From: a virus
UHGV virus genome: UHGV-0106768
Direction: 5' to 3' (one strand)
DNA length: 44,108 nucleotides
The translations under genes were made by a program, and so were the position numbers. The notes under the pieces are model-generated. The model saw nothing but the letters and a program-made list of their open reading frames with translations, was not told the origin of the DNA and searched no databases. Of this stretch, positions 4,391 through 22,005 are shown piece after piece. Positions within the stretch are counted from its first letter, which is position 1; the number at the start of each line of letters is the position of its first letter.

Positions 4391-5638
4391 ATGCCTGACG
4401 TTCACGCACTGCTCAGTGCGTCCAGTTCAAAACAGTGGCTACACTGTCCGCCGTCAGTCCGTTTGCAGGAGGGATTTCCGAATGAGAGTTCAGTCTACGC
4501 CGCAGAGGGCACGTTTGCCCACGAGATCTGCGAATACAAGGTACGTAAGTACCTGAAGGAGCGTGTGAAGCGTCCGCAGTCCGAGGAATATGACACCGAG
4601 GAAATCGAGCAGATCACAGATGTGTATGCGGAGTTCGTGATCTCCATCATTGAGCAGATGAAGGAGAACGGCTGTGAGCCGCTTGCTTTTGTTGAGGAGC
4701 GTGTGGACTACAGCCACATTGCCCCTTCCGGCTTTGGCACGGCAGATATGCTCATCATCGGTAAGGACGAGCAGGGACGCGGAATCCTTCATGTATGCGA
4801 TTTCAAGACGGGTGCAGGCGTGTTTGTGGATGCAGACCACAACAGCCAGATGATGCTCTATGCGATCGGAGCTTTAGCCGCCTACGGCTTTTTGTATGAT
4901 TTTGAGATCGTGCGTATGAGCATCATTCAGCCTCGTCTGGATAATATCAGCACATTCGAGTGTAGCAGAGCCGAGCTTGAGGAATGGGGCGAGAGCATCA
5001 AGCCCATTGCGAAACTTGCCTACGAGGGCAAAGGTGAACAGCACCCCGGCGACTGGTGTCGGTTCTGCCGTGCAAAGCCTGTTTGCAAAGCGTGTGCCAA
5101 TGAAGCACTGGCACTCTGCCGTGAGGATTTCCTTGACCTCGATGCCGGAGCATTCGATGATACTGCGGAGGAAAGCGATATGACCGCACCATACGAAGCG
5201 GATATACAGACTGCCGTATTCAAGCAGCCGTGACTGATTCCTATCAGCGAACTTGCGGAGATCCTGCCGACTCTGAACCGCATCAGCTCTTGGATCGAGG
5301 CGGTATTCGCATTCGTATCCTCCGAGGCGATCAATCACGGTGTACCGATTCCCGGCTATAAGGTGGTCGAAGGGCGCAGCAAGCGTGTATTCACAGATAC
5401 AAAAGCTGTGGTCGATACCGCTGTTCAGAACGGGTACACCGACCTTTACAAGCAGACGCTCATCACGCTGACGGAATTTGAAAAGATGATGGGCAAGAAA
5501 AAGTTCAACGAGCTGCTCGGTGAGTATGTCGCCAAGCCACCCGGAAAGCTGGCACTTGTGCCGGAGAGCGATCCGAGAGAACCCGTTGATCTCACAACAC
5601 CCGGTCAGGAATTTGAAGTTCTCTCTGATGATGAGTGA
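4391..5638 (+). CDS. DUF2800-like PD-(D/E)XK nuclease (Cas4/RecB-like), interrupted by in-frame TGA at 5231-5233
   Basis: N-terminal MPDVHALLSASSSKQWLHCPPS and C-terminal Cys cluster CRFCRAKPVCKAC are as expected for DUF2800; same-frame continuation through the stop reads as protein (ISELAEILPTLNRISSWIEAV...GYKVVEGRSKRVF); downstream part has no RBS or ATG. Confidence 0.7.
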
Positions 5639-10527: not shown

Positions 10528-10964
10528 GAGAATATGTTGTCGAAAACGAGTTTATCAAGGCGGTAAAAGCGGCAGGCGGTGTGGCATACAAGCTGACATC
10601 GCAGACCGCAAACGGACTGCCGGACAGACTCGTTCTGTTCCCGGCGGCAAAGACGATTTTCGTGGAGCTGAAAGCACCGGGGAAAATGATGCGACCGTTG
10701 CAGCGTAAAAGACGGTATCAGCTTATGAAACTCGGCTTTCCGGTGCTGTGCATTGACAGGATGCCGCAGATCAAGCCGTTCATATCAGCAGCATTGTCAT
10801 GGACACCCGGTGAGCCGTTCCCGGAAGGCATCGGTGCGAAGATACCCGATCTGGAAAGGGCAACGCTGCCGACGGATATGGATAACTTCGGGGAAACGCT
10901 TGAACCCATCGATCCAGACAATCTGATAGAGTTTTATGAAATAGAGGACGGTGATGATGCATGA
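10524..10964 (+). CDS. VRR-NUC domain nuclease
   Basis: GLPDRLVLFP...FVELKAPG...LQRKRRYQ pattern; probable TTG start at 10524 (ORF track gives overlapping ATG 10437). Confidence 0.6.
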   Translation: MREYVVENEFIKAVKAAGGVAYKLTSQTANGLPDRLVLFPAAKTIFVELKAPGKMMRPLQRKRRYQLMKLGFPVLCIDRMPQIKPFISAALSWTPGEPFPEGIGAKIPDLERATLPTDMDNFGETLEPIDPDNLIEFYEIEDGDDA

Positions 10965-11458
10965 TTAACCCTAAACGCAGAGCTGTGAGAAAAAGCTGCT
11001 CATACTGCGGAACTGTCTTTACCTATGTCGGAAGTCATGGTACAAGAAATAAGCATTTTTTCTGTTCTCATGAATGCTATATTGCCTTTAAGACAAAGAA
11101 AGCAGAAGTGAAATGCGATTGGTGCGGCAAATCAATGCTGAAAAAACGCTCTGAAATATGGAGAACGGATCACAATTTCTGCTGCCCCGAATGCTGTTTA
11201 CTGTATAGGCAAAAGCAAGGCGAAACTTCATGGAATCATCGTGTGAATGGAATAACCGTACACAGGGGCATTTTGGAGAAGAAGCTCGGACGAGAACTGC
11301 GTGCGGATGAAGAAGTACACCATATCGATGGTAACCATTTCAATAATGATCCGGACAATCTCATCGCCCTTTCCAAATCGGAACACGCCAAAATTCATTC
11401 TTCTTGGAAAGCGAGGGACGAGTATGGAAAATACGTTAAAACGCAGTCAGATTCATGA
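10961..11458 (+). CDS. HNH endonuclease (free-standing, homing-endonuclease-like)
   Basis: Cys-rich N-terminus plus HNH motif EVHHIDGNHFNNDPDNLIALSKSEHAKIH; overlaps both neighbours. Confidence 0.75.
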   Translation: MINPKRRAVRKSCSYCGTVFTYVGSHGTRNKHFFCSHECYIAFKTKKAEVKCDWCGKSMLKKRSEIWRTDHNFCCPECCLLYRQKQGETSWNHRVNGITVHRGILEKKLGRELRADEEVHHIDGNHFNNDPDNLIALSKSEHAKIHSSWKARDEYGKYVKTQSDS

Positions 11459-12806
11459 ATACCAAAAATACTGTGTTGACTTTATTAAGTCTCATCCCGT
11501 ATCAGCACTCTTTTTGGATTGCGGACTTGGAAAGACGATCATTTCATTGACTGCAATATATGATCTAATGTTTGATGAGCTGAAGGTATTTAAAGTTCTT
11601 GTAATTGCCCCTCTAAGAGTGACAAATGTCTGGAAAGCGGAGGTTCAGAAATGGAGTCATCTGCAAGATGTTGATGTTGCGATAGTAGTCGGAACTGTAA
11701 AACAGCGGATTGCTGCGATTAACAGTAACGCTCTTGTTTACGCTGTCAACCGTGAAAATGTGAAGTGGCTCGTAGAGTATTACGAGAAAAACGGTCTTCG
11801 TTGGGATTTTGACATGATTGTCATTGACGAGCTGAGTTCCTTCAAAAACTACCAGTCACAGCGGTTCAAATGGTTGCGTAAGGTTCGGCCTTTCGTGAAG
11901 CGCTGGGTAGGCTTGACAGGTACGCCGACTTCCAACGGACTCATGGACTTATGGGCAGAGATCGGTATCCTTGACGGCGGTGAGAGGCTTGGACGATTTA
12001 TCGGGCGTTTCCGAGAGTCTTACTTCAAGCCTGCATCCATGAACCCAAGTACGGGTGTGGTGTTCTCATATACACCCCGTCCCGGTGCGGAGGAACAGAT
12101 ATATCAGAAGATCTCCGACATCACCATTTCTATGAAAGCACTGGACTATCTGGATATGCCTGAATGCGTGTATGTCAATCATGAGGTCGAGATGAATGCA
12201 GCGGAGCGAAAGCTCTACGATCAGTTGAAGCACGACCTCATTATCCCGCTTGAGGACGGCGACATTGATGCCGCCAACGCTGCATCGCTTTCCAATAAAC
12301 TGCTCCAGATGGCGAACGGCGCGGTCTATGATGAGAACAAGGAAACACGCACCATTCACAGCCGCAAGCTGGAGATGCTGGAAGACCTGATCGAATCGGC
12401 AAACGGACAACCTGTGCTGATCGGTTACTGGTTCAAGCATGACCGCACCCGAATTATAGAGCATCTGACCGCTTGTGGTTATGCTCCGAGGGATATTAAG
12501 GATTCCGACGATATCACTGACTGGAACGCCGGAAAGATCAGTGTTGCTCTGATACATCCGGCTTCGGCAGGACACGGACTGAATATCCAGTCCGGCGGTC
12601 ATATCCTGATCTGGTTTGGCCTGACATGGAGTCTGGAGCTGTATCAGCAGACCAATGCAAGACTCTGGCGGCAGGGGCAGCAGCACACTGTTACTATCCA
12701 TCACATCGTAACAAAAGACACAGTAGATGAAGATGTCCTGAAAGCTCTCGCTTCAAAGGACGTGACGCAGGAGAAGCTGATCGCAGCAGTCAAGGCAAGA
12801 TTGTAA
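11424..12806 (+). CDS. SNF2-family helicase
   Basis: Walker A-like LDCGLGKT, DEAD-like IVIDELSSFKN, motif III LTGTPTSNG, C-terminal helicase motifs; ATG 11424 with RBS. Confidence 0.8.
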   Translation: MENTLKRSQIHEYQKYCVDFIKSHPVSALFLDCGLGKTIISLTAIYDLMFDELKVFKVLVIAPLRVTNVWKAEVQKWSHLQDVDVAIVVGTVKQRIAAINSNALVYAVNRENVKWLVEYYEKNGLRWDFDMIVIDELSSFKNYQSQRFKWLRKVRPFVKRWVGLTGTPTSNGLMDLWAEIGILDGGERLGRFIGRFRESYFKPASMNPSTGVVFSYTPRPGAEEQIYQKISDITISMKALDYLDMPECVYVNHEVEMNAAERKLYDQLKHDLIIPLEDGDIDAANAASLSNKLLQMANGAVYDENKETRTIHSRKLEMLEDLIESANGQPVLIGYWFKHDRTRIIEHLTACGYAPRDIKDSDDITDWNAGKISVALIHPASAGHGLNIQSGGHILIWFGLTWSLELYQQTNARLWRQGQQHTVTIHHIVTKDTVDEDVLKALASKDVTQEKLIAAVKARL

Positions 12807-12902
12807 CAATATACAGTCTGTATGATCCACCCCTTATTGACGACAGGAAGACGGCAAAGCGGCGACAATTCGGTTACGCCGCAAACCACGGAGGTGAAAA
12901 CT

Positions 12903-13388
12903 ATGGCTCGTAAGAACAAACGCCTAAAAACAGAATACCACAGAGGGCTCGGCTTTGATCCGAGAAAATATATTACGGCACCGGTGCAGCACCACACCAT
13001 CGCTCACAAGCCGCAGCGCGGTGACATCTGGTTTGCGGATCTTGGCTGTCATCCGGATTCCAGCGTGCAGAGCGGCATCCGTCCGGTTATCATTCTCTCG
13101 AATGATATGGGCAATGCACACGCCGACACGGTCAATATCATTCCCATGACGCGGCATCTGAAAAAGCCGGAGCTGCCGTGCCATACGCATCTGTTCCCCG
13201 ACAGTATTTCCGATCTTCATCAGCATCTATATCCGTCCATGATCCTGGCGGAGCAGCTCACGACTGTCAGCAAGCATGCGCTTCGCAGCTATGCCGGACA
13301 TATCTCGGACGCCGATGCGATGAACCGTATTGAAACCGCTGTCATTGCACAGCTTTTCATTGAAAGGAGACATTCCGAATGCCTGTAA
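12903..13388 (+). CDS. MazF/PemK-like endoribonuclease-fold protein with ~38-aa basic N-terminal extension
   Basis: RGDIWFADLG...GIRPVIILSND...VNIIPMT pattern; GGAGGTGA RBS 5 nt upstream of ATG 12903. Confidence 0.65.
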   Translation: MARKNKRLKTEYHRGLGFDPRKYITAPVQHHTIAHKPQRGDIWFADLGCHPDSSVQSGIRPVIILSNDMGNAHADTVNIIPMTRHLKKPELPCHTHLFPDSISDLHQHLYPSMILAEQLTTVSKHALRSYAGHISDADAMNRIETAVIAQLFIERRHSECL

Positions 13389-15808
13389 ATTTCGTAAATA
13401 TCCCGGACGCACTGAAGCAGTCGGCATCCTTCTGTGTCTGGAAGCTGGAAAAGAGATCCGGACGCCCCACAAAAGTGCCGTACAATCCGAGAACCGGCAA
13501 CATGGCAAAAACCAACGAGCCGGACACCTTCACCGACTTCAAGACCGCTATGAAAGCGTATGCGATTGGCGGCTGGAACGGCATCGGCTACAGAGTTTCC
13601 GAGGGAATCGGTGCAATCGACATCGACCACTGTATCCGGGAGGACGGCAGCCTGAATGATGTGGCAGCATCCATTCTCGGTATCTTCAGCACTGCCTACT
13701 TTGAACGCTCTCCATCCGGCACCGGACTGCGCGGCTTCTTCAAACTCAGCCCTGAGTTTGCCTACGATAAGACTGTGTACTACATCAACAACCGCAAACA
13801 CGGTCTGGAGGTCTATCTGCCCGGAACGACCAACCGCTTTGTAACTGTTACGGGAGATATGTTCCGTCCCGGTACCGTTGAGCGTGATGATGATGCACTC
13901 CGCAATCTGCTTGACACCTTCATGAAGCGCAGCACCCGTGTATCAAATAAGACGATCGAGCCTGCATCCTATCTTGATGACGAGGGTGTCATCGCACACG
14001 CATTCGCCTCTGCTTCTGGTGATAAATTCAAAGCACTCTACGAGGGACACTGGGAGGAAGGCTATGATTCGCAGTCTGATGCAGACATGGCGTTCGTGTC
14101 CATGCTGTGCTTCTGGTGCGGCAATGTGGAGGAGCAGATCGACCGTATCTTCCGAACTTCCGGTCTGATGCGTGATAAGTGGGATCGTATGACCGGTGAC
14201 AGGACCTACGGTCAGATCACGATCCGCAATGCCATCGCATCGACATCCGAGATCTATACACCTATTGCGGACTCCTCCGCAGAGGATGATTTTGAAGATA
14301 TTGAGGGCGAGACAGATACAGAGCAGCTGATGTTTGAGCCGGATTTCACCCACATCACCCTGACGCTGGAACAGATGCAGCCGCACACAAATCCTCGCTA
14401 TCAGCGTGACGAGATCGGTATTGGCTATGCATTTGCGGATTACTATAAGCCAATCGCTCATTTCGACCGTGAGCGCGGTATCTGGTATGTCTTTGACGGG
14501 AAGGTGTGGCAGCCGGACGAAAATGCTCTCGCTGTGGCGGAGATTGCAAAGCGTCTGGCAGACAGGCTGTATACCTTCGCCCTTCAGATCAAGGATGAGG
14601 ATACTCGAAACAGGTATATCAAGCGTGTACAGAAGCTCCAACTCCGCAAAAACCGCCGCACCATGATCGAAGATGCGAAATCCGTGTATCCAGTGCCGCA
14701 CGCTATCTTTGACCGCAATACCGATCTGTTCAACAGTCAGAACGGCACGCTGAACCTCACCACAGGTGAATTCCGTCCGCACGATCCGGCAGACTTTCTC
14801 ACCATGATGTCCGGTGTCACCTATGATCCGAATGCCACCTGTCCGAGATGGGAGCAGTTCATTTCCGAAGTTATGTGTAACGATGCTGACCTCGCATTAT
14901 ACTTGCAAAAAGCCCTCGGATATGCGCTTACCGGCGACACATCGCTCGAATGCCTGTTCATCCTCTACGGTGCGACCTCCCGAAACGGAAAAGGCACCAC
15001 AATGGAGACATTTCTGAAGATCATGGGTGATTACGGCAAAACCTCCAATCCGGAGATGCTGTCTACAAAATTCGGCAACACCAATGCGTCCGGACCGTCT
15101 GAGGAGATTGCTCGCCTTGCGGGTGTGCGTTTCGTTAATATCTCCGAGCCGGAGAAGAAGATCACCTTCAATGCAGCACTGGTAAAGCGTATGACGGGTA
15201 ACGATACACTGAATGCTCGTTTTCTGCATGAGAACAGCTTCGATTTCAAGCCGAATTTCAAGATCTTCATCAATACGAATTACAAACCGTCCGTTTCTGA
15301 TATGACACTGTTTTACTCCAACCGTCTGAAGCTCATTCCGTTCAAACGCCATTTTGAGGAGCATGAGCAGGACAAAGGTCTGAAAGCATTTTTCAGTACG
15401 GATGTCTGCCTCTCTGCCATCTTTAACTGGTGCTATGAAGGATATAAGCGGTTTCGTTCCGAAGGTCTGGAGGATCCGGCTGCTGTTTCTCAGGCAACCA
15501 AGGAGTATCAGGAGGAGTCTGACCGCATCGGTCAGTTTGTGGATGCATGGCTCGAAGAAGGCGAAGCATTTGAAGTTCGTACCTCTGCGGCATATAAGCT
15601 GTACGGTGAATGGTGCGATAAGTATGGCTACCGCAAGGAGAACAGCACCAACTTCAATAATGCGATTCAGCGTTTCTTCCCCATCGTGCGTAAGCGTCCG
15701 AACGATACAAAGGGTGCGCAGAAAACAACAATGCTTGTGGGGTGCCGTTTCCTGGATCATGAAAACGGCGAAGCTGACGAACCGGATGAGTTTGCTGCCT
15801 TGGAGTAA
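13379..15808 (+). CDS. DNA primase/helicase (prim-pol-like N-terminal domain plus P4/D5-type helicase)
   Basis: 809 aa; Walker A GATSRNGKGT; N-terminal bifunctional primase-polymerase-like region; AAGGAGA RBS. Confidence 0.8.
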   Translation: MPVNFVNIPDALKQSASFCVWKLEKRSGRPTKVPYNPRTGNMAKTNEPDTFTDFKTAMKAYAIGGWNGIGYRVSEGIGAIDIDHCIREDGSLNDVAASILGIFSTAYFERSPSGTGLRGFFKLSPEFAYDKTVYYINNRKHGLEVYLPGTTNRFVTVTGDMFRPGTVERDDDALRNLLDTFMKRSTRVSNKTIEPASYLDDEGVIAHAFASASGDKFKALYEGHWEEGYDSQSDADMAFVSMLCFWCGNVEEQIDRIFRTSGLMRDKWDRMTGDRTYGQITIRNAIASTSEIYTPIADSSAEDDFEDIEGETDTEQLMFEPDFTHITLTLEQMQPHTNPRYQRDEIGIGYAFADYYKPIAHFDRERGIWYVFDGKVWQPDENALAVAEIAKRLADRLYTFALQIKDEDTRNRYIKRVQKLQLRKNRRTMIEDAKSVYPVPHAIFDRNTDLFNSQNGTLNLTTGEFRPHDPADFLTMMSGVTYDPNATCPRWEQFISEVMCNDADLALYLQKALGYALTGDTSLECLFILYGATSRNGKGTTMETFLKIMGDYGKTSNPEMLSTKFGNTNASGPSEEIARLAGVRFVNISEPEKKITFNAALVKRMTGNDTLNARFLHENSFDFKPNFKIFINTNYKPSVSDMTLFYSNRLKLIPFKRHFEEHEQDKGLKAFFSTDVCLSAIFNWCYEGYKRFRSEGLEDPAAVSQATKEYQEESDRIGQFVDAWLEEGEAFEVRTSAAYKLYGEWCDKYGYRKENSTNFNNAIQRFFPIVRKRPNDTKGAQKTTMLVGCRFLDHENGEADEPDEFAALE

Positions 15809-15936: not shown

Positions 15937-16114
15937 AAATAAATAAAAACAATAGAAAAGATAAGAAGAATAGAGGATTTTCACTGATTTGAACCATTAC
16001 CCATTTTGCACTGTTTTGAACCTTGCCCGATGCTGTCACTGACAAAGAGTGTGTAAGCGACAAAGCGTGGCAAGGTCAAAATCCAACGATCAATCATGCA
16101 GGAGGAACAAGAAT

Positions 16115-17209
16115 ATGAGAATCATCACTTCAGAACAGGTATCCGCAGGACACCCCGACAAGATCTGTGACCAGATCGCAGATGCTATCGTGACCGACTG
16201 CCTGCAGCATGACCACAACAGCCGTGTCGCCATCGAGTGCCTTTTCAAGAACCGCTTCCTTGTGATCGCCGGTGAACTGACCAGCACCCATGAGCCCGAC
16301 TACAAGGCACTGGTGCAGAGCGTGTTTGACCGCATCAACAACGGCGGAGCAGAGAGTACCGATGCAGGTTTTGATTACAAGCTGGATTTCACAGCCGATG
16401 ATCTGGACATTGCGATTCTGGTCGATCACCAGAGTAGCGACATTGCCCTCGGTGTGAATACCGGCGGTGCAGGAGATCAGGGTATGATGTACGGCTATGC
16501 GACCAACGAAACGCCGGAGATGCTCCCGATCCCCTTCGTGCTGGCTACCAGATTTCTGGAACTGCTGAAAGCCTACCCCTGCCGTATGCTGAAAGCCGAC
16601 GCAAAGGCACAGGTCAGCTATGACTATGACAGCGGTCGCATTACCACCTTCCTCTGCTCGGTGCAGCATACACACGATGTGGATGTTGAGGACTTCAAGC
16701 CCATCATCGAAAAGCTGATGGTGAGAACGGCAACCGAATACGGGCTGAATACAGACTTTGCAAAGCTCGTCAACCCGACCGGCAGATTTGTCATAGGCAG
16801 TTCCTTTGCGGACTGCGGCGTTACCGGACGCAAGCTCGCCTGCGATACCTATGGCGGTATCGGGCATATCGGCGGCGGTGCAATGTCCGGCAAAGATCCG
16901 TCTAAGGTTGACCGCAGCGGCGCATATGCAGCAAGAAAAATCGCAAGGGATATCGTCAGTGCCGGATATGCGGATATGGCAGAGGTGCAGATCGCATATG
17001 CCATCGGCGTGGCAGAACCCGTATCCGTGTATGTGGAAACCTTCGGCACGGAGCATCAGGATACGGAGTTCATCAGCCAGTATGTCCGTGAGAACTACGA
17101 CCTGACACCGAGAGGTATCATTGAAGGACTGCATTTGCTGGATGTGGACTACAACGCTGTTTCCGCATACGGACACTTCGGAAAACAGAACCTTCCGTGG
17201 GAACTATAA
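16115..17209 (+). CDS. metK: S-adenosylmethionine synthetase (MetK)
   Basis: SEQVSAGHPDKICDQIADAI N-terminus, GAGDQGMMYGYA and GGGAMSGKDPSKVDRSGAYAARKIA motifs; CAGGAGGA RBS. Confidence 0.85.
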   Translation: MRIITSEQVSAGHPDKICDQIADAIVTDCLQHDHNSRVAIECLFKNRFLVIAGELTSTHEPDYKALVQSVFDRINNGGAESTDAGFDYKLDFTADDLDIAILVDHQSSDIALGVNTGGAGDQGMMYGYATNETPEMLPIPFVLATRFLELLKAYPCRMLKADAKAQVSYDYDSGRITTFLCSVQHTHDVDVEDFKPIIEKLMVRTATEYGLNTDFAKLVNPTGRFVIGSSFADCGVTGRKLACDTYGGIGHIGGGAMSGKDPSKVDRSGAYAARKIARDIVSAGYADMAEVQIAYAIGVAEPVSVYVETFGTEHQDTEFISQYVRENYDLTPRGIIEGLHLLDVDYNAVSAYGHFGKQNLPWEL

Positions 17210-18915: not shown

Positions 18916-19397
18916 CGCTGACTGAGAACTTCATTCAGAATGCCATCCATCTCGATGCGGGTGCGGAGGTCATGTACGGCAGCGATCAGATGTACGACAC
19001 CTACCCTTGCCGTTTTCCGGCTGTGGAGTTTCAACTTATGGCAACGGATGCTCTTGTTGAGGTTGCAGACCGCATCCGCATGGAGAAGGGCTACCTTCCG
19101 ATGCATCCGAGAGACGGCAAGACAGACGATGTGGACTGCGATGGTTTCTATGATTTTTATGTCGGGATTTCAAAGCTCCCCGGCGACCATCAGCAGTGCC
19201 AGCTTGACAGCAGCATCAGCTTTATGGTTGTCAATTCGGATTCGGATGACAACGAGGATATGTACAATATCGACTTGACAGAAGCAGAACGGGAATATGT
19301 GTATGAGATACTGAACCGACAGTGCCGGAGGTATCACGGCAAGGACTGCGCCGAACTTCTGGCAGAGTCTGAAAAGGAGCTGATGGATACAGCATGA
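18912..19397 (+). CDS. hypothetical protein
   Basis: 161-aa ORF overlapping the upstream stop (ATGA); RBS GGAGGG. Confidence 0.5.
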   Translation: MTLTENFIQNAIHLDAGAEVMYGSDQMYDTYPCRFPAVEFQLMATDALVEVADRIRMEKGYLPMHPRDGKTDDVDCDGFYDFYVGISKLPGDHQQCQLDSSISFMVVNSDSDDNEDMYNIDLTEAEREYVYEILNRQCRRYHGKDCAELLAESEKELMDTA

Positions 19398-21541
19398 GAA
19401 TTATCAAGCGAAACGGCGCAGAGGTGCCGTATGACTGTGAAAAGATCAGAGCCGCAATTACTGCGGCAAACGATGAGATGGATTCCGGCGACAGGATCAC
19501 AGATACAGTAATCGGCTTTATTGCTGGTAATGTAGAAAAGCGATGTGAGGCACTTGCAAGGCCTGTCCATGTCGAAGAAGTCCAGGACATGGTTCTTGAT
19601 GAACTGGACAGGGCCGAAGCGTACAAACTTGCACGGCACTACAGCGAGTACCGCCTGCGTCATGAACAGCAGCGCCGGATGAACACAACGGACGGCAAGA
19701 TTCTCAGTCTCCTTGAGAGGAACAACGAGGAGGCAAAACAGGAGAACGCCAACAAGAACCCGATCATCAACAGCACGCTCCGTGACTATATGGCGGGGGA
19801 GGTCAGCCGAGACATCTGCCGCCGATTCCTGTTTCCCGAAGATGTAATCGCTGCCCACGATGACGGCATCATTCATGTACACGATCTGGACTACATCGCA
19901 GAGCCGATGCATAACTGCTGTCTGGTGAATCTGGAGGATATGCTTCAGAACGGCACAGTGGTATCCGGTACTATAATTGAGAAGCCGCACAGCTTTTCGA
20001 CTGCCTGCAATATCGCAACGCAGATCATTGCACAGGTCGCCTCGAATCAGTACGGTGGACAGACCGTCAGCCTTGCACATCTTGCACCTTTCGTGGATGT
20101 GAGCAGAAAAAAGATCCGCACCGAGGTGTTCGAGGATGTGAACTGCGACTGCGGTGCAAAGCTGTCTGAAAAAGAACTGGACTACATCGTAGAAAAGCGT
20201 GTGCGACGGGAGGTCAAGCGTGGCGTGCAGACGATACAGTATCAGATCAACACGCTGCTCACTACCAACGGACAGACGCCGTTCGTCACAGTGTTTATGT
20301 ATCTTGATGAAGTGCCGGAGGGACAGACCCGTGATGACCTTGCGCTCATCATCGAGGAAACACTGCTTCAGCGTATCGAGGGTGTGAAAAACGAAAAGGG
20401 CATCTGGATCACACCGGCATTTCCGAAGCTGATCTATGTTCTTGATGAGGATAACATTCAGCCCGGTTCCAAGTATTACTATCTCACCGAGCTTGCCGCC
20501 AAGTGTACTGCAAAGCGCATGGTTCCCGACTATATTTCCGCAAAGGTGATGAAACGTCTGAAGGGTGATGTGTATGCCTGCATGGGCTGCCGATCTTTCC
20601 TGACACCTTCGGATGACCACAAATACTACGGGCGATTCAATCAGGGAGTCATCACGATCAACCTTGTGGATGTTGCGTGTAGCGCAGGCGGAGACGAAGA
20701 TAAATGCTGGCAGCTTCTTGATGAACGCTGCGAACTGTGCCGCAAAGCGCTTGTGTGTCGGCATGACCGCCTGAAAGGGACACCGTCCGATGTTGCACCA
20801 ATCCTCTGGCAGTATGGCGCACTTGCGAGACTGAAGAACGGCGAGGTCATTGACGATCTGCTGTATAACAACTACAGCACGATCTCGCTCGGCTATGCCG
20901 GCATCGCGGAAATGACCTATCACATGACAGGCCGTTCGCATACAGAGCCAGAAGGAAAAGCGTTTGCACTGAAGGTCATGCGATTCCTGAACGATAAGTG
21001 CAGCAAATGGAGAGCTGAAAGCAATATCTCGTTCTCGCTGTACGGCACGCCGATGGAGAGCGTCACCTACAAATTTGCACAATGTTTGCAGCGCAGACAC
21101 GGCATCATTCCTCATGTGACCGACAAGAGCTATATCACCAACAGCTATCATGTCCATGTGACTGAGCCGATCGATGCCTTCAGCAAGCTAATTTTTGAGG
21201 CAGAGTTTCAGGAGCTTTCTCCGGGCGGTGCGATCAGTTATGTGGAAGTACCGAATCTGCAAAACAATATCCCTGCAGTGCTGGTGCTCATGAGACACAT
21301 CTACGAAACGATTCTGTACGCCGAACTGAATACCAAGTCCGATTACTGTCAGGCTTGCGGCTATGACGGCGAGATCGGGATCGTGGAAGAAGACGGCAAG
21401 CTGATCTGGGAATGTCCGAACTGCGGCAACCGCGATCAGCGAACACTGAATGTCTGCCGCCGCACCTGCGGTTACCTCGGAACGCAGTTCTGGAATCAGG
21501 GACGCACTGCTGAGATCAAGGATCGGGTGATGCACCTGTGA
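19394..21541 (+). CDS. nrdD: anaerobic ribonucleoside-triphosphate reductase (class III, NrdD)
   Basis: 715 aa; C-terminal zinc ribbon (CQACG...CPNCG) and glycyl-radical motif RTCGYLG. Confidence 0.85.
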   Translation: MRIIKRNGAEVPYDCEKIRAAITAANDEMDSGDRITDTVIGFIAGNVEKRCEALARPVHVEEVQDMVLDELDRAEAYKLARHYSEYRLRHEQQRRMNTTDGKILSLLERNNEEAKQENANKNPIINSTLRDYMAGEVSRDICRRFLFPEDVIAAHDDGIIHVHDLDYIAEPMHNCCLVNLEDMLQNGTVVSGTIIEKPHSFSTACNIATQIIAQVASNQYGGQTVSLAHLAPFVDVSRKKIRTEVFEDVNCDCGAKLSEKELDYIVEKRVRREVKRGVQTIQYQINTLLTTNGQTPFVTVFMYLDEVPEGQTRDDLALIIEETLLQRIEGVKNEKGIWITPAFPKLIYVLDEDNIQPGSKYYYLTELAAKCTAKRMVPDYISAKVMKRLKGDVYACMGCRSFLTPSDDHKYYGRFNQGVITINLVDVACSAGGDEDKCWQLLDERCELCRKALVCRHDRLKGTPSDVAPILWQYGALARLKNGEVIDDLLYNNYSTISLGYAGIAEMTYHMTGRSHTEPEGKAFALKVMRFLNDKCSKWRAESNISFSLYGTPMESVTYKFAQCLQRRHGIIPHVTDKSYITNSYHVHVTEPIDAFSKLIFEAEFQELSPGGAISYVEVPNLQNNIPAVLVLMRHIYETILYAELNTKSDYCQACGYDGEIGIVEEDGKLIWECPNCGNRDQRTLNVCRRTCGYLGTQFWNQGRTAEIKDRVMHL

Positions 21542-22005
21542 ATTACTGCGGACTGAATAAAAACGATATCGCCAACGGCGAAGGTGTCCGTGTATCGCTG
21601 TTTGTATCCGGATGCCGGAATCAATGCAAGGGCTGTCACAACCCAGAGGCATGGGATTTCAGCTATGGACAGCCCTTCACAAAAGAAACTGAAGATGAGA
21701 TCATCGAAGCCCTGCGTCCTTCTTGGATACAGGGCATTTCCATACTCGGTGGTGAACCCTGTGAGCCGGAAAATGAAAAAACACTCCTGCCTCTGCTGAA
21801 AAAGATCTGGTGGGAGATGCCAGAAAAAGATATCTGGCTGTACAGCGGATACACTTACGAGCAGTTGCAAGGCAGAGCCATACTTCGGTATGTGGATGTT
21901 CTGGTTGACGGGCCGTTCCTAATCGACCAGAAGGATATCTCCCTTGCATTTCGAGGCAGTCGGAATCAACGGATCCTCCGATTAAGAAATGGGGTGCGGG
22001 TATGA
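21538..22005 (+). CDS. nrdG: anaerobic RNR activating protein (radical SAM, NrdG)
   Basis: CRNQCKGC radical-SAM cysteine motif near N-terminus; immediately downstream of and overlapping NrdD; GTG start. Confidence 0.75.
   Translation: MNYCGLNKNDIANGEGVRVSLFVSGCRNQCKGCHNPEAWDFSYGQPFTKETEDEIIEALRPSWIQGISILGGEPCEPENEKTLLPLLKKIWWEMPEKDIWLYSGYTYEQLQGRAILRYVDVLVDGPFLIDQKDISLAFRGSRNQRILRLRNGVRV

Follow-up and report, generated by a model that had tools for sequence, protein, structure and literature searches.

The window analyzed here is a 44,108-nucleotide stretch of the virus genome UHGV-0106768, part of a phage genome of perhaps 60-75 kb, and it takes in the early, replication, accessory and head genes only. 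Within it, a gene for a MazF/PemK-family protein lies in the replication module between the genes for an SNF2-family helicase and a primase, a placement made in an earlier note on the sequence and on which Pfam and PHROGs agree (Table 1). That note had called the protein an orphan, with a basic N-terminal extension and no antitoxin beside it. The word suggests a stray gene, yet this one is fixed in its replication operon, is under purifying selection and overlaps the start of the primase gene. What emerges from the analysis is a MazF-family protein with an apparently intact active site and a highly conserved N-terminal peptide, encoded next to a primase gene and with no antitoxin gene alongside, and the question is what a phage would do with it.

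The MazF/PemK core had been read from the motifs RGDIW, GIRPVIILSND and IIPMT, all of which are present, and profile search, a search of solved structures and structure prediction bear it out. The protein matches Pfam PemK_toxin (PF02452) with an expectation value (E) of 6e-20 and 71.9 bits (cut-off 23.1), its residues 38-149 aligning to positions 1-107 of the 109 in the profile, and it matches phrog_1936, "MazF-like growth inhibitor", with an E of 1.1e-23, residues 33-156 lying on positions 5-124 of 188, so that the N-terminal 32 residues are left uncovered by that profile. The closest PDB proteins found with phmmer are Staphylococcus aureus MazF and Bacillus subtilis MazF/EndoA (E about 1e-14). 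The AlphaFold model, made from an alignment of 32 diverse sequences, has a predicted local distance difference test score (pLDDT) of 87, with the core above 94; an earlier run on 63 close homologues had given a poor model (pLDDT 55). The predicted structure has the MazF/CcdB-type beta-barrel core with a C-terminal helix, and its top Foldseek match is 4mdx_A, B. subtilis MazF bound to RNA (template modeling score 0.90, root-mean-square deviation 2.1 A, 120 columns), with MazF toxins throughout the leading matches.

Arg25 and Thr48 are catalytic in B. subtilis MazF, and their counterparts here are Arg60 and Thr83. Both are invariant in 63 family members, and among 32 diverse relatives of 37-56% identity R60 is kept in 31 of 32 and T83 is at least 90% conserved. 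The LAEQ segment, which reads LLEQ in B. subtilis MazF, is conserved as well. Pairwise ratios of nonsynonymous to synonymous substitution rates (dN/dS) over the whole gene, taken against relatives, are 0.09-0.24, and the gene is under purifying selection. Because of the PDB matches, the predicted structure, the active site and the selection, the product looks like a maintained, catalytically competent MazF-family RNase.

Table 1. Features of the MazF locus in the window and the basis on which each was assigned
Feature	Position	Strand	Basis
SNF2-family helicase gene	11421..12806	+	Pfam SNF2-rel_dom, E 1.4e-19; phrog_62 DNA helicase, E 9e-172
Conserved 96-nucleotide non-coding leader	12807..12902	+	80-89% identity in relatives; holds the ATACAGtCTGTAT palindrome
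Shine-Dalgarno sequence GGAGGTG	12890..12896	+	Read from the sequence; 6-nucleotide spacer to the ATG of the MazF gene
MazF/PemK-family protein gene, 161 amino acids	12903..13388	+	Pfam, PHROGs, PDB, AlphaFold/Foldseek, dN/dS
Conserved N-terminal peptide, residues 1-25, MARKNKRLKTEYHRGLGFDPRKYIT	12903..12977	+	Invariance in the family; pN/pS
Variable linker, residues 26-37	12978..13013	+	Hypervariable in sequence and length
MazF/PemK catalytic core, residues 38-149	13014..13349	+	Pfam envelope; model pLDDT >94 over most of it
Codon for Arg60	13080..13082	+	Aligns with catalytic Arg25 of B. subtilis MazF, GIRPV on GVRPV (4mdx, phmmer)
Codon for Thr83	13149..13151	+	Aligns with catalytic Thr48 of B. 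subtilis MazF, IPMT on AAIT
MazF stop/primase start overlap, 10 nucleotides, ATGCCTGTAA	13379..13388	+	Read from the sequence
Primase/helicase gene (NrS-1 polymerase helix-bundle domain, D5_N, Pox_D5)	13379..15808	+	Pfam, PHROGs

The part of the protein that sets it apart lies in front of this core. The gene has a strong Shine-Dalgarno sequence of its own. A GGAGGTG-type Shine-Dalgarno sequence, exact or one to two bases off, precedes the MazF start in 21 of 21 relatives checked, and the start codon behind it is ATG, TTG or GTG; a start codon of varying identity that always stands behind such a sequence marks the true N-terminus. An in-frame ATG further upstream, at 12822, was rejected as the start: it has no Shine-Dalgarno sequence, and the stretch 12822-12903 is not conserved as protein in relatives.

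The lysine/arginine-rich extension described in the earlier note is indeed basic, residues 1-37 having an isoelectric point of 10.7 and a net charge of +6.8 against -3.4 for the core, but it is more than that: a conserved peptide is followed by a hypervariable linker, and the whole marks out a large subfamily. M1, R3, K4, N5, R7, K9, E11, Y12, F18 and K22 show no variation across 63 family members, and the family-wide pattern for residues 1-25, MARKNxRxKTEYHRGLGFDPRKY, is nearly invariant, while residues 26-36 vary in sequence and length. At greater distance, in the 32 relatives of 37-56% identity, M1 and N5 are still invariant and R3, K4 and R7 are at least 90% conserved; at the very start of the protein the pattern M-[G/A/P]-R-K-N-[K/R]-R, in most cases with Y.R.LGF[N/D]P.KYI after it, stays near-invariant down to about 37% identity. 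This N-terminal tag is conserved as strongly as the catalytic-loop segment. Over codons 1-25 the proportion of nonsynonymous sites that differ (pN) is 0-0.10, against 0.25-0.49 for synonymous sites (pS), and synonymous differences reach the frequency seen elsewhere in the gene, so the constraint acts on the protein and not on the RNA; overlapping coding or an RNA constraint on these codons is ruled out by the normal synonymous variation.

The layout recurs widely. An exhaustive search of representatives found 4531 homologues at E<1e-3, and the closest clusters at 50% identity are mostly 150-290 amino acids long with the MazF core at the C-terminal end; a word-indexed search matched 291 clusters, and the best 120 of the 291 are 63-95% identical and almost all full-length, extension included. 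Between peptide and core the linker runs to about 8-81 residues in the diverse members measured, and further in P0147, and is often of low complexity. Net charge over the first 25 residues ranges from +2.5 to +10.5 across all the diverse members, with the core close to neutral, and many distant members also have an acidic C-terminal tail (-5 to -11). The combination of a basic nucleic-acid-binding region with an acidic tail is an architecture already known. In some of the members P0149, P0161, P0174, P0177, P0184 and P0250, two or four MazF domains stand in tandem in one chain; P0149, at 471 amino acids, has four. P0250 combines an N-motif MazF with a C-terminal part that contains a P-loop and resembles a primase by eye only, and it may be a read-through or frameshift product.

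The N-terminal motif was found in no other open reading frame in 2.0 Mb of related phage DNA, and the peptide has no similarity to anything in the PDB (E up to 10), Pfam or NCBIfam. In the predicted structure residues 1-10 have a pLDDT of 57, residues 11-30 of about 70, with a helix at 9-15, and residues 31-40 of 86, values at which the peptide may be partly ordered against the core. No study of N-terminally extended MazFs was found in the literature, and a conserved, primase-linked MazF subfamily with such a tag appears to be undescribed so far.

The lack of an adjoining antitoxin gene holds at the window locus and recurs in more than 70 related loci. No open reading frame of at least 20 amino acids lies wholly inside the 96-nucleotide gap upstream of the MazF gene; two antisense frames, of 99 and 25 amino acids, touch the gap, the shorter being mostly within the SNF2 gene. 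A conserved antisense antitoxin was rejected, as relatives differ in the length of their longest antisense open stretch, which ranges from 74 to 180 amino acids. On the other side the adjacent gene encodes a primase of 809 amino acids, so the neighboring protein antitoxin gene that marks a type II toxin-antitoxin system is missing. The earlier note had also suggested a search for a cognate antitoxin elsewhere in the genome; within the 44-kb window, Pfam scans of 46 open reading frames found no MazE, PemI, AbrB, RHH or other antitoxin family. The repeats that would point to a type III system are likewise absent, Tandem Repeats Finder (minimum score 30) having found no tandem repeats at 12500-13600, and no PADLOC-DB 2.0 model matches MazF or the primase, the SNF2 gene giving generic helicase matches only.

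All genes of the operon lie on the same strand, and the order SNF2, gap of about 96 nucleotides, MazF, primase, MetK is kept in metagenomic and viral contigs. The overlap between the MazF stop and the primase start, as ATGCCTGTAA, ATGCCTGTGA or ATGTCTGTAA, is shared by 17 of the 19 distinct loci of the close family and, read from the sequence, suggests translational coupling. Extended MazF genes stand immediately 5' of the primase in 46 of 52 distant viral loci, in which MazF is 34-57% and the primase 56-85% identical, and this adjacency persists even with one to three extra open reading frames between SNF2 and MazF. The replication (early/middle) operon includes the MazF gene as a fixed component, conserved by vertical descent. 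The primase as an obligatory partner was considered and is weakened by two sets of loci. MetK, not primase, is directly downstream of MazF in L042, L133 and L158 (L042 and L158 have the N-motif; the N-terminus of L133 is unconfirmed), and cultured phages with this type of primase (about 31% identity; Listeria PSA, Bacillus phi105) have a gene for a single-strand DNA-binding protein in MazF's position. Because these cultured phages lack a MazF gene, MazF is an accessory gene fixed in one lineage and no requirement of the primase. In L129 and L130 the MazFs are short and without the motif, and an HNH endonuclease gene comes next, followed in L129 by a ParB-like methyltransferase gene.

Several observations concern the genes around this pair. 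The MetK (S-adenosylmethionine synthetase) gene, at 16049-17209 just past the primase, is conserved in relatives and may supply several phage methyltransferases; methyltransferase genes or fragments lie at about 22.2-24.4 kb of the window. An HNH endonuclease gene (HNH_3) at 10961-11458, between the VRR-NUC and SNF2 genes and overlapping the SNF2 start with its 3' end, is present in L003 and absent from L006 and L007, and looks like a mobile homing-type insertion. In L006 (10489-14795 of a 131-kb JGI (Joint Genome Institute) contig) the primase gene ends after codon ~130, the preceding part being 91% identical to residues 1-130 of the window primase, and beyond the cut come a gene for a large serine recombinase and then EAL-domain and AAA_14 genes; either another element has inserted into this primase gene, or a prophage junction falls within it. 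In L007, whose MazF is identical to that of L006, the primase is intact.

The gap in front of the MazF gene is itself conserved. It is 80-89% identical among relatives whose MazF synonymous sites differ at pS 0.43-0.70, and it holds the ATACAGtCTGTAT palindrome just past the SNF2 stop codon, three GRCGRCA repeats spaced 11-12 nucleotides apart at 12839-12868, and a hairpin, GCGGCG-N12-CGCCGC, at 12860-12883 just before the ribosome-binding site. No sigma-70-type promoter and no stable RNA fold (z 0.51) were found in this leader, no Rfam family matched in the window, leader included, and neither the CGGTWACGCC motif nor the GRCGRCA cluster has a second copy in the window. The leader probably carries regulatory information.

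The nearest genome match is Ruminococcus flavefaciens 007c, at 95% identity, and the other genome matches are metagenome-assembled rumen or gut Oscillospiraceae, Lachnospiraceae and Clostridia; the lineage comprises siphovirus-type phages or prophages whose hosts are Oscillospiraceae and Lachnospiraceae of the rumen and gut. The phage is probably temperate, since it occurs in the genome of an isolate and open reading frames with weak likeness to ImmA and XRE lie at 105-2033. Anaerobic ribonucleotide reductase genes at 19394-22005, namely NrdD (assigned by position and by the ATP-cone, NRDD and Gly_radical domains of relatives) and the activase NrdG (Fer4_12/radical SAM), fit a strictly anaerobic host. 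Elsewhere in the window a DUF2800/PD-(D/E)XK nuclease gene at 4391-5638 is split into pieces of 280, 43 and 91 amino acids, the outer two corresponding to positions 1-249 and 294-368 of the Pfam profile; in relatives it is one gene of 416 amino acids, and the split could reflect frameshifts, a pseudogene or assembly errors. Across the + strand of the whole window short palindromes are strongly avoided, including GGCC (28 observed, 176 expected), CGCG (52, 162), ACGT (37, 101), AAGCTT (1, 22), CTCGAG (0, 11), GGWCC and CCWGG, a pattern typical of restriction-site avoidance.

Taken together with what is known of T4 RegB, these features lead us to propose that the protein is a solitary phage endoribonuclease of the lytic program, a reading to which we would give about an even chance. 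In the lysogen the MazF gene would be silent under prophage repression. During lytic growth the product would dimerize and cut single-stranded RNA at a short sequence, and this cleavage could shut off host translation, clear early transcripts as the program advances, or both; a dedicated antitoxin would be unnecessary because the infected cell is doomed anyway. Most likely the N-terminal peptide, on its linker of variable length, is an arginine/lysine-rich arm that binds RNA, the ribosome or a partner protein and so targets or tunes the nuclease. That it goes further and acts as a targeting or regulatory module, either a lambda N-like RNA-binding arm that steers cleavage or a built-in, releasable inhibitor that replaces an antitoxin, is a tentative suggestion. 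We read the activator and HNH neighbors of other phage MazFs as placing those genes near the early/late boundary, a position that fits a role in timing.

Several results sit uneasily with this proposal. UACAU, the canonical site of Firmicute MazFs, shows no avoidance on the coding strand (30 sites observed against 34 expected), and with the same specificity the phage's own mRNAs would therefore be cut too; the non-avoidance fits a RegB-like role or another specificity, not a simple host-only shut-off. Nor did a search for strand-specific depletion of Markov-corrected 4-, 5- and 6-mers on the coding strand yield anything convincing, palindromes dominating the result. The late region has 2 UACAU sites in 9.2 kb, too few to carry meaning. 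The pLDDT of about 70, not below 50, over residues 11-30 means that in the predicted structure the peptide may pack on the core, which would favor autoinhibition. The nucleotide-conserved leader hints at regulation that the proposal does not account for, and since the window spans 44 kb of a genome that may reach 60-75 kb, an antitoxin gene could lie farther away.

The earlier note had offered three functions, a toxin neutralized in trans, a domesticated RNase for host shutoff or anti-defense, and an abortive-infection module; the domesticated RNase for host shut-off fits best. Neutralization in trans, which would make the locus an unconventional toxin-antitoxin or addiction module, could come from an antitoxin elsewhere in the phage, from an unrecognized phage protein such as the primase or a transcriptional activator, or from host MazE, and we regard it as rather unlikely. 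Solitary MazF-mx of Myxococcus xanthus is reportedly neutralized by the unlinked transcription factor MrpC (PMC4803016), an antitoxin role disputed by later MazF-mx work. The MazF-primase link in 46 of the 52 distant loci and the overlapping codons of the close family resemble toxin-first operons, but the MetK genes downstream of the N-motif MazFs of L042 and L158 mean that the primase is no universal partner. A phrog_36/248 activator lies just 5' of MazF in other phage lineages, whereas no activator gene adjoins MazF in the window lineage, and although the window covers part of the phage only, no antitoxin-family domain was found in 46 of its open reading frames. If the restraint lay instead in the protein itself, the N-terminal peptide would fold back, by way of its flexible linker, on the MazF dimer and block the RNA groove until released by proteolysis, a partner or nucleic acid. 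The arrangement of peptide, freely variable linker and core is what such a device would look like, LGF[N/D]P.KYI, the motif's second half, is hydrophobic and aromatic as expected of a groove-docking peptide, the confidence of the prediction (about 70 over residues 11-30, 86 over 31-40, with the helix at 9-15) is unlike that of a disordered tail, and autoinhibition would account for the missing antitoxin gene; other families, CapRel and EzeT among them, include toxin-antitoxins fused in a single chain. However, this peptide is strongly basic, whereas the known MazE tails lodged in the RNA groove of MazF are acidic and mimic RNA; the peptide has no sequence similarity to any MazE or PDB chain, and the earlier, shallower model gave the N-terminus a pLDDT below 50. 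We think autoinhibition unlikely.

The abortive-infection reading, in which the gene would be expressed in the lysogen from the leader and triggered by another phage as defense or superinfection exclusion, is the least supported of the three functions, and we consider it very unlikely. MazEF and other toxin-antitoxins can act against phages, and phages encode MazF inhibitors (PMC10769878). The phage was found in an isolate genome, and the conserved leader could hold a dedicated promoter or operator, but no sigma-70-type promoter was found in it, no PADLOC model matched, and a gene that lies within the replication operon and overlaps the primase is no moron with its own promoter and terminator. 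Moreover, the lysogen would be killed if it made the toxin with no antitoxin present. It is more improbable still that the fold has been domesticated with no RNase role, either as a blocker of a host replication or defense protein, as CcdB blocks gyrase, or as an accessory subunit of the primase. The MazF/CcdB superfamily does include members that are not RNases, the diverse member P0125 lacks the catalytic Arg, and the gene sits in a replication module in tight linkage with the primase. Against this, the catalytic Arg and Thr are kept in almost every member and the LAEQ segment is conserved, the closest solved structures are all active MazF RNases, and the primase does not need MazF, as the cultured phages with the same primase at about 31% identity show.

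Toxin-antitoxin RNases are mostly studied as two-gene bacterial modules or as anti-phage defenses. This case is the reverse, with the phage keeping an apparently intact nuclease, and no recognizable antitoxin, in its replication operon, and it raises the questions of how phages use toxin-fold RNases for takeover or timing, how such a gene stays harmless in the lysogen, and whether a short tethered peptide can direct a MazF or hold it in check. Clostridia phages of the rumen and the human gut, in which host shut-off is almost unstudied, carry the family in abundance. If the arm does steer cleavage, its targets could be rRNA, tRNA, host-defense RNAs or the phage's own early transcripts; and if either the targeting-arm or the built-in-inhibitor version is true, these proteins would form a new single-polypeptide class of phage MazF nucleases, linked to a replication primase and widespread in phages of rumen and gut Clostridia. 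A MazF with new specificity or built-in control could also serve as a tool.

The closest relatives of solved structure are the bacterial enzymes. B. subtilis MazF/EndoA (NdoA) and S. aureus MazF (PDB 4mdx, 4me7, 4mzm) belong to the same Pfam family and share about 30-32% identity with the phage protein over about 115 residues. They are proteins of 113-120 amino acids with no N-terminal extension, encoded directly after mazE in a two-gene chromosomal operon, whereas the phage protein has a 37-residue peptide and linker, no mazE, a replication-operon context and a stop codon that overlaps the primase start. Loop residues differ too, SSVQSG against GSEQGG and LPCH against LPTH, and the specificity may therefore not be the same.

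Phage MazF-like "growth inhibitors" are already catalogued, and tblastn finds MazF-like genes in 99 phage records. Like the window protein, the MazFs of phrog_1936 and phrog_35650, from Ca. Heliusvirales NatCom phages, Faecalibacterium phage FP_Brigit, Lactobacillus phage LpeD and Enterocloster phage PMBT24, have no recognized mazE annotated alongside; they are 33-44% identical to it. Unlike it, they are about 118-122 amino acids long with no N-terminal peptide, and their genes follow a phrog_36 transcriptional activator or lie in other modules, not directly 5' of a primase. The Heliusvirales MazF (118-122 amino acids) resembles the window gene in following an SNF2-type helicase region, with an open reading frame of 160 amino acids in between. 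That frame, and the one directly 5' of MazF in L129, L126 and L042, are phrog_36/248 transcriptional regulators or activators (L001 5500-5985, L002 5493-5984, L129 3473-3979, L126 4278-4757, L042 5-334), the one in L042 also matching sigma-70 region 4, and this recurrent pairing of activator and MazF may be meaningful. The paper describing the Heliusvirales makes no mention of MazF, and no experimental study of any phage MazF-like gene was found in the literature.

A functional analogue is T4 RegB, a phage-encoded, sequence-specific RNase of toxin-type fold for which no antitoxin is known; it inactivates early mRNAs and hastens the change in gene expression (PMC3014915, PMC1702504). The likeness concerns the proposed function alone: RegB is not homologous to the window protein, its fold being RelE/YoeB-like and that of the window protein of the MazF type, and it requires ribosomal protein S1. 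Among MazFs proper, MazF-mx of M. xanthus likewise has no adjacent mazE and is part of a developmental program, the existence of its antitoxin being debated (PMC4803016, PMC2701414). It differs from the window protein in being chromosomal and not phage-borne, and its proposed partner MrpC is unrelated to anything found at the window locus. We know of no conserved N-terminal peptide in MazF-mx. Type III systems such as ToxIN and AbiQ share with the window locus a Kid/MazF-like RNase toxin behind a conserved non-coding region and the absence of a protein antitoxin gene, but they need tandem RNA repeats upstream, whereas the window leader has neither such repeats nor a stable fold, and the protein behind it is a member of PF02452 and not of the ToxN family.

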